Below are positions 33,222 through 33,784 of a stretch of 64,000 nucleotides of DNA, piece by piece. Position numbers and translations under genes: made by a program. The stretch lies in the NCBI RefSeq assembly GCF_056712565.1, contig NZ_CM160072.1. One strand, written 5' to 3'. Every line of letters begins with the position of its first letter. Within the stretch, counting starts at the first letter, position 1. The notes under the pieces were generated by a model. That model saw only the letters and a list, made by a program, of their open reading frames with translations. It searched no databases and was not told the origin of the DNA.

Positions 33222-33506
33222 TTATTGCGTAACCAGACGGCGCAGTCGCGACACATCCACCGTTTTTTCCGCCTCTGCCAGACTCCAGGCATTTTGCAGA
33301 TTCAGCCACATTTGCGGCGAACTGCCGATCACCACGGAAAGTTTTATTGCCATTTCTGGCGTCAAAGCTGCTTTTCCGGTCAGCAATCGGCTTGCCGTTG
33401 AGGGCGCAATTTCCATTGCTCTGGCAAACTCGCGCAGGCTGACATTAAGTTCGTCCAGTGATTCCTGAATAATGTCCCCCGGGCGGGGATGATTGGCCAT
33501 TTTCAT
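33222..33506 (-). CDS. yddM: HigA-like antitoxin (XRE-family helix-turn-helix)
   Basis: 94-aa ORF; abuts the upstream toxin-like ORF at a shared position (33506). Confidence 0.6.
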
Positions 33507-33784
33507 CAGTGATAGTCCTCGTAATCCAGTATGTATGCATCGCCATTGACGAATTCAAATGTGATTCGCCAGTTGCCCGAGACAGATATCGCCCAAATTC
33601 CATCGCGATCGCCGCTTAACGGATGTAGTCGGTAACCGGGCATATCGATATCAGCAAGACAGCATGCTGCATCAATCACAGCGAGTCGGTGGCGTAATCG
33701 TTTGACTTGCGTCGGTATAACGCCGGAGGTTTTGCCGAGAAGAAACAAGTCACGCAATCCCTTGTGTCTGAAATTCATTATCAT
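33506..33784 (-). CDS. HigB/RelE-like toxin (toxin gene first in the operon)
   Basis: 92-aa basic ORF immediately upstream of the HTH antitoxin gene; toxin-then-antitoxin order is the HigBA arrangement. Confidence 0.55.

Follow-up and report, generated by a model that had tools for sequence, protein, structure and literature searches.

A chromosomal HigBA-family toxin-antitoxin locus beside fdnI in Escherichia coli, with a conserved antitoxin gene and a repeatedly lost toxin gene

Introduction

Why does an antitoxin gene remain in the core genome of a species in which the toxin gene beside it has repeatedly been lost or broken? The question is posed by a locus of Escherichia coli that we analysed in a 64,000-nucleotide (nt) stretch of DNA, referred to here as the window (NCBI RefSeq assembly GCF_056712565.1, contig NZ_CM160072.1), in which two small genes, higB and higA (yddM), occupy positions 33222-33784. 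The whole window is 100% identical to the record of E. coli ATCC 11775, and the host is a phylogroup-B2-type E. coli. RefSeq annotates ATCC 11775 in the order fdnI, yddM ("HigA family addiction module antitoxin"), "type II toxin-antitoxin system RelE/ParE family toxin" and adhP, which confirms the position between the fdn operon and adhP given in a preliminary description of this DNA.

In our reading, the pair is very probably a chromosomal operon for a type II toxin-antitoxin system, of the HigBA family known from Rts1/Proteus vulgaris, that would work as its P. vulgaris relative does. Membership in the family is close to certain, and the main uncertainty is the activity of this particular toxin. 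A HigB/HigA pair beside fdnI is in itself already known and ordinary, being present in RefSeq, in TADB and in the literature on adherent-invasive (AIEC) and uropathogenic (UPEC) E. coli, and its antitoxin has been crystallised. What we add, as a modest side result, is synteny and selection at the level of genera, counts of higA and higB across complete genomes, and a toxin frameshift found in 545 of those genomes. The locus offers a natural decay series, intact in B2-type strains, frameshifted in ST131-type strains and deleted in K-12 and O157.

Results

Both genes lie on the minus strand and follow one another in the toxin-first order of HigBA-type modules, as had been proposed for them, with higB running from 33784 to 33506 and higA from 33506 to 33222. 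The first (33506..33784, minus strand) is an open reading frame (ORF) of 92 amino acids with an ATG start and a TGA stop at 33508-33506, and corresponds to RefSeq WP_000605675.1; the second (33222..33506, minus strand) is a 94-amino-acid ORF that also starts with ATG and corresponds to WP_000781370.1. The six-frame ORF list and the sequence itself bear out these coordinates and lengths. Direct reading of the minus strand at the junction, CTATCACTGATGAAAATGG and ...CACTGATGAAAATGG..., likewise confirms that stop and start share position 33506: the TGA of higB and the ATG of higA (33506-33504) have this A in common, within a TGATG at 33504..33508. A putative Shine-Dalgarno sequence for higA, GAGGA (33516..33520, minus strand), falls within the 3' end of higB, 9 nt 5' of the ATG, and a second candidate, AGGA (33792..33795, minus strand), precedes the ATG of higB by 7 nt; the AAGGA 5' of higB is kept in most of the orthologous loci. 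One early statement did not survive: the 92-amino-acid protein had been called basic, and it is not, with 11 lysine and arginine residues, 11 aspartate and glutamate residues, a pI of 6.89 and a charge of about -0.2 at pH 7. The mildly basic partner, with a pI of 8.2, is the product of higA.

The family of the toxin was assigned with profile hidden Markov models. The search with hmmscan returned PF05015 (HigB-like_toxin) alone for HigB, with a score of 63 bits (cutoff 27; E=3.8e-17) over profile positions 2-91 of 91, and the ParE_toxin profile was not matched. The RelE/StbE subfamily model TIGR02385 reached 17.4 bits, below its cutoff of 27.9, which places HigB in relation to that subfamily at the superfamily level only. 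Among sequences in the PDB, the best matches were P. vulgaris (Rts1) HigB chains in the free, HigA-bound and 70S-bound states (E~1e-31), and the alignment to P. vulgaris HigB is gap-free over residues 1-92 with 52 of the 92 residues identical (56.5%). In that protein toxicity and mRNA cleavage both require His54, Asp90, Tyr91 and His92 (Schureck et al., PMC5027501), Arg73 aids cleavage, though the effect of R73A is modest, and the third-nucleotide pocket is shaped by Asn71 (PMC5027501). All six residues (H54, N71, R73, D90, Y91 and H92) stand at the same positions in the HigB of the window, and all six are invariant in the eight aligned homologues, which include those of Escherichia, Citrobacter and P. 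vulgaris. Two substitutions relative to P. vulgaris, R48M and K57S, affect residues that are individually dispensable there (PMC5027501). As a side observation, the HigB of the window has a cysteine at position 41 (codon 33662-33664), which makes a Cys-Cys pair at 41-42, where most other intact alleles have serine (three from E. coli, that of E. albertii, one from each of two more Escherichia genomes and, among the eight intact Citrobacter orthologues, seven); glycine stands there in two C. amalonaticus orthologues.

The predicted structure leads to the same branch. A single-sequence AlphaFold2 model of HigB was dropped, with a predicted local distance difference test (pLDDT) score of 52 and with residues 1-48 below 50, and the AlphaFold2 model used here was instead built from a shallow alignment of eight sequences and is of moderate confidence (pLDDT 70). 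When this model was compared with the PDB by Foldseek, the top 14 matches were all P. vulgaris HigB (template modelling score ~0.6, probability 1.0), followed by YafQ, RelE, YoeB and GraT. Based on this structural homology and these matches, the upstream protein is predicted to have the microbial RNase fold of the RelE/ParE superfamily, and to belong to its HigB branch, in agreement with what the preliminary description expected of it. PADLOC placed the toxin in none of its defence-system families.

It is in light of these data that the name "ParE-2", under which this protein has been published, should be considered. The name, like the RefSeq label "RelE/ParE family", might imply a ParE-type poison of DNA gyrase, paired unusually with HigA, and it has its origin in CDD, which gives "ParE_toxin superfamily" only (PMC7232551); a review likewise treats the pair under the ParE gyrase inhibitors (PMC11205521). 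We regard a gyrase poison as very improbable, as the sole Pfam match is HigB-like_toxin, the protein is 56.5% identical to a proven ribosome-dependent RNase whose full catalytic set it carries, ParE structures rank far below HigB, YafQ, RelE and YoeB in the fold search (E>0.1), and the partner is HigA, not ParD. The published name is a superfamily label, and the protein belongs to the HigB RNase branch.

The antitoxin is equally well placed. Its XRE-type helix-turn-helix (HTH), noted early on, is recovered as a match to PF01381 (HTH_3; E=7.6e-10), and the NCBIfam equivalog model TIGR02607 (antidote_HigA) is matched with 93.7 bits, well above its cutoff of 47.7 (E=4.5e-27). With HigB-like_toxin and HigA profiles both matched, and both above their curated cutoffs, the original interpretation as a HigB/HigA pair is upheld. 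HigA is identical in all 94 of its 94 residues to the "antitoxin higa" of PDB entries 2ICP and 2ICT, which is YddM of E. coli CFT073 (PMC3968373, PMC6987408), and it aligns gap-free to residues 7-87 of P. vulgaris HigA. The operator contacts of the latter are Ser23, Thr37, Ser39, Arg40, which makes the sole base-specific contact, and Lys45 (PMC12266136); S23, T37, S39, R40 and K45 are all kept in the window, and Thr34 is replaced by alanine. In PADLOC the antitoxin gave only a weak, HTH-level match to PDC-M64B (E=6.7e-5), which we did not take as membership.

Upstream of higB we predict a promoter on the minus strand (33812..33841), composed of a -35 element TTGCGC (33841-33836), an 18-nt spacer, and an extended -10 element, its TG at 33820-33819 and its hexamer TAGTGT at 33817-33812; transcription would start near 33805. 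Two perfect palindromes overlap it, and each other, through one common central half-site. The proximal one, TGTTCC-N7-GGAACA (33796..33814), spans the region from the -10 element to about +10, the distal one, GGAACA-N10-TGTTCC (33809..33830), covers the promoter spacer and the -10 element, and both are operator-like, the proximal one being a candidate site for HigA. Each is unique in the window, where the chance expectation is 0.01 for the proximal and 0.03 for the distal palindrome. The assignment of promoter and operators comes from phylogenetic footprinting: in an alignment of the promoter DNA of 12 loci, of which eight are from Citrobacter, one is a toxin-less E. coli and the others are from E. 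coli, E. albertii and another Escherichia species, TGTTGCG at the -35-like element, the three half-sites and TG-N-TAnTGT are invariant or nearly so, and the surrounding DNA has diverged. The half-sites are fixed from Escherichia to Citrobacter while the spacers vary, as would be expected if proteins bind there. The distal palindrome is kept in toxin-less K-12-type alleles.

The gap of 185 nt between adhP and higB opens with a conserved hairpin followed by CUGUUUUG, and this hairpin, GCUGCGAC...GUCGCAGC and then CUGUUUUG (33933..33960, minus strand), is the likely terminator of adhP. Its 9-base-pair (bp) stem is present and does not vary among the E. coli alleles aligned, though over the full 58 nt the z-score falls short of significance; the hairpin would likely separate adhP from the hig promoter.

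To trace the age of the module, species-representative genomes were scanned with a degenerate pattern, which gave 15 loci, and these results were checked by tblastn. The HigB-HigA pair adjoins fdnI in Escherichia, namely in E. albertii and two more genomes of the genus, and in nine or more genomes of Citrobacter, where HigB is 77-88% identical to that of the window. The upstream neighbours in Citrobacter are an ABC-F ATPase, an exo/endo-phosphatase-family protein and maeA, not adhP. Relative to Citrobacter, the ratio of non-synonymous to synonymous substitution rates (dN/dS) is 0.05-0.12 for both genes with dS at about 0.9-1.9, and within E. coli the intact higB alleles differ by eight synonymous and one non-synonymous changes, or by four and one. 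The shared synteny with fdnI in the two genera and the low dN/dS indicate that the module is old, vertically inherited and under purifying selection that includes the toxin; it is not a recent mobile insertion. A recent plasmid origin was rejected, as the plasmid-borne HigB homologues are all less than 60% identical and no close plasmid copy was found among them. Three matches of at least 90% did occur in "plasmid" records of 4.9 Mb, 385 kb and 253 kb, which seem to be chromosomal DNA deposited under a plasmid label. The same data bear on whether the two ORFs could be chance frames or mis-annotations that lack a function, an idea for which their small size speaks, and nothing else; with both products above curated cutoffs, a crystal structure of HigA and a syntenic pair under purifying selection across genera, we give it next to no credence, less than any other alternative considered here.

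Within E. coli the two genes have fared very differently. Of 5426 complete genomes, 5408 carry higA (99.7%), which makes it a core gene. Among nine E. coli genomes examined, eight encode the identical protein, WP_000781370.1, whether or not they have higB, and the orphan higA of K-12-type strains differs from that of the window by nine synonymous and no non-synonymous changes. The lesions of the toxin gene are of at least four types in E. coli, counted as allele types. In the first, a 1-nt deletion at window position 33687 shifts the frame of higB at codon 33, which then soon runs into a stop; the example comes from an O25b:H4 genome of sequence type (ST) 131 (L005 598-875), where the Prokaryotic Genome Annotation Pipeline (PGAP) flags a "frameshifted" pseudogene. 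In K-12-type alleles higB is cleanly absent and the promoter/operator block is fused directly to yddM. The O157:H7 allele of TR01 (L007 1498-1644, against window 33509-33552) retains the last 44 nt of higB, a remnant which indicates that the absence arose by deletion; this remnant is fused to the distal promoter region, and the allele shares with the window the stretch at about 33899-33935, missing from the K-12-type allele. The structures of these two alleles suggest that the toxin-less state arose through more than one deletion event. In TUM13066 there is a 9-nt in-frame deletion in higB, and higA is intact. Toxin decay in Citrobacter is independent of the E. coli losses: Citrobacter sp. FP75 (L013 1423-1526) has fragments of higB only, C. 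portucalensis (L021 6559-6823) has higB split across two frames, and both have an intact higA beside fdnI. The toxin has thus been lost or broken repeatedly while higA (yddM) stays a conserved core gene. In the literature searched, the only relevant earlier statement on this orphan-antitoxin pattern is in PMC7232551.

Several observations weigh against a working toxin-antitoxin operon of the P. vulgaris type and have to be set beside those above. The toxin gene is found in 1328 of the 5426 complete genomes and is absent from about 75% of them, and the exact 61-mer across the 1-nt deletion occurs in 545 of the 5426, some 41% of the higB carriers. With higB so widely absent or frameshifted, the toxin gene is dispensable and may be weakly toxic or weakly expressed. 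A sigma-70 consensus scan of 32900-34100 reported no promoter, the hig promoter being missed because both of its core hexamers are weak. The geometry of the palindromes differs from that in P. vulgaris, where the operators are two separate 21-bp sites with the two contacted G/C positions 6 bp apart inside each, whereas in the window two palindromes have one half-site in common and the corresponding G's are spaced by 13 or 16 bp, which makes the operators a tentative assignment. The TADB entry for the pair is higBA TA027334, and a review states that it "remains to be characterized" (PMC11205521). The literature searched holds no published assay of whether this E. coli HigB is toxic, is neutralised by its partner or cleaves RNA.

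An alternative is that the module is domesticated or decaying, such that YddM acts mainly as a chromosomal transcription factor with its own role and HigB is an attenuated, dispensable accessory, either a modulator of HigA or a weak toxin, and does not arrest growth as a working toxin would. The excess of higA over higB carriers fits this explanation, as do the four or more distinct E. coli lesions in which higA is always intact, the two further lesions in Citrobacter, the purely synonymous divergence of the orphan higA, and the retention of the whole promoter/operator block in the orphan allele. Four considerations nonetheless lead us to regard it as unlikely. Intact higB is selected as strongly as higA at near-saturated dS, its catalytic residues are all invariant from E. 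coli through Citrobacter to P. vulgaris, which would be unexpected for an inactive relic, the copy in the window is full length, and the literature searched names no target of YddM beyond its own promoter. A functional HigBA operon thus remains our favored interpretation.

The DNA on the far side of higA has a history of its own. The spacer between fdnI (plus strand, ending at 32993) and higA (33016-33227) is a variable-number tandem array whose 178-nt unit consists of the fdnI terminator hairpin and a pair of repetitive extragenic palindromic (REP) elements. Two copies of the hairpin are present in the window, at 33016-33049 and 33194-33227, 91% identical to one another, and the gap between fdnI and higA measures 228 nt; it is 50 nt, with one hairpin, in the ST131 genome and 406 nt in a K-12-like strain, in which the program TRF reports a period of 178 with 2.2 copies. 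The hairpin just 3' of the higA stop (33194..33219) is the second of these copies, and has a strong T-run on the plus strand only. A search of Rfam gave nothing in the hig promoter or genes, and sub-threshold matches in this spacer only, the best of which was naRNA4 (33067-33103), on a REP element.

Antisense to higA, on the plus strand, lies an ORF of 90 amino acids (window 33196-33468) that may correspond to c1908 of CFT073, described as "antisense of yddM" in a sigma-S run-off transcription study (PMC3141248); as a coding sequence it is most likely spurious, and antisense transcription over higA from the fdn side is possible. On the other flank, adhP (minus strand) ends at 33970. Its mechanically called ORF uses an upstream ATG at 35010 (346 amino acids, window 33970-35010), and the RefSeq start is 10 codons further in, giving 336 amino acids and a boundary at about 34980.

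Discussion

Our findings allow a mechanism to be outlined for the module by analogy with P. vulgaris. In the proposed scheme, free HigB would enter the ribosomal A site and cleave mRNA at adenosine-rich codons, so that translation stops. His54 would serve as the general base, Arg73 would stabilise the transition state, and Tyr91, helped by Asp90 and His92, would be the general acid. The expectation of ribosome-dependent cleavage at A-rich codons is drawn from conservation of the P. vulgaris active site together with N71. A dimer of HigA would sequester HigB, probably as HigB-(HigA)2-HigB, and keep it off the ribosome. Through its N-terminal XRE HTH, the same dimer may bind the TGTTCC/GGAACA palindromes over the -10 element and repress the operon. 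The TGATG overlap would couple translation of higA to that of higB, which suggests that the toxin would not be made unless the antitoxin is made as well, and free toxin would then appear only upon degradation or dilution of HigA.

This scheme leaves the question with which we began, and for it we can offer a tentative answer. It is possible, though in our judgement somewhat doubtful, that the hig locus has been fixed since at least the common ancestor of Escherichia and Citrobacter and that YddM, by now encoded by a core gene, serves a selectable role in its own right, for instance wider gene regulation or standing immunity against incoming HigB-type toxins. Such a function would explain why strict purifying selection has kept higA in place through four or more independent losses of the toxin. 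All of the K-12-type genomes examined carry yddM with an identical antitoxin protein, and BL21(DE3) carries yddM as well. Among laboratory strains, BW25113 is a derivative of K-12. The idea of anti-addiction, in which YddM guards against Rts1-type HigB, is weakened by the toxicity of P. vulgaris HigB on induction in E. coli BW25113 (PMC5027501), although over-expressed HigB could swamp YddM supplied from a single gene copy in that strain. With the identical antitoxin encoded in K-12 and BL21 hosts, an assay of HigB toxicity in them would be confounded, and a ΔyddM host is needed.

Comparison with described systems places the pair closest to one that is already on record. In a 2020 paper, Bustamante and Vidal list, as TA20 of the AIEC strain NRG857c, the genes NRG857_07325 ("ParE-2", 279 nt) and NRG857_07320 ("HigA-2", 285 nt), with the same one-base overlap, report the pair in CFT073 and the antitoxin only in K-12 and HS, and measured how far bile salts, acid and macrophages induce toxin genes (PMC7232551). 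TA20 of NRG857c and YddM of CFT073 are the same genes in a sister strain, with sizes and position that match; nothing substantive differs, and the window holds the ATCC 11775 allele.

The nearest characterised relative is HigBA of Rts1 (4MCT/4MCX, 4PX8, 4YPB and 9CHL), which has in common with the pair in the window a 92-amino-acid toxin encoded first, the catalytic set, an antitoxin with an N-terminal XRE HTH and the same DNA-contact residues, and operators that overlap the promoter. It differs in being plasmid-borne, whereas the pair in the window is chromosomal and vertically inherited beside fdnI, and in its HigA, which has 104 amino acids in Rts1/P. vulgaris against 94 here. GraT-GraA of Pseudomonas putida (6F8S, 6F8H) belongs to the same HigBA subfamily, with the toxin first and an HTH antitoxin, and is much more distant (HigB against GraT, E=5.5e-7; HigA against GraA, E=1.8e-11, in the PDB sequence search). 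The N-terminus of GraT is disordered, and GraT releases GraA from DNA (PMC12266136); nothing suggests such behaviour for the HigB of the window, whose N-terminus aligns fully with P. vulgaris HigB.

The HigB-HigA pair of K-12 (YgjN-YgjM), in turn, has the same name, the toxin-first order and an HTH antitoxin, but is of a different lineage: its HigB chain is absent from the PDB sequence matches of the window HigB at E<=1, and the HTH is at the C-terminus in K-12 HigA and at the N-terminus in HigA of the CFT073 type (PMC6987408). In B2 strains such as NRG857c and CFT073 it is the YgjN-YgjM locus that holds an orphan higA alone (PMC7232551), the reverse of what is seen at the hig locus beside fdnI.

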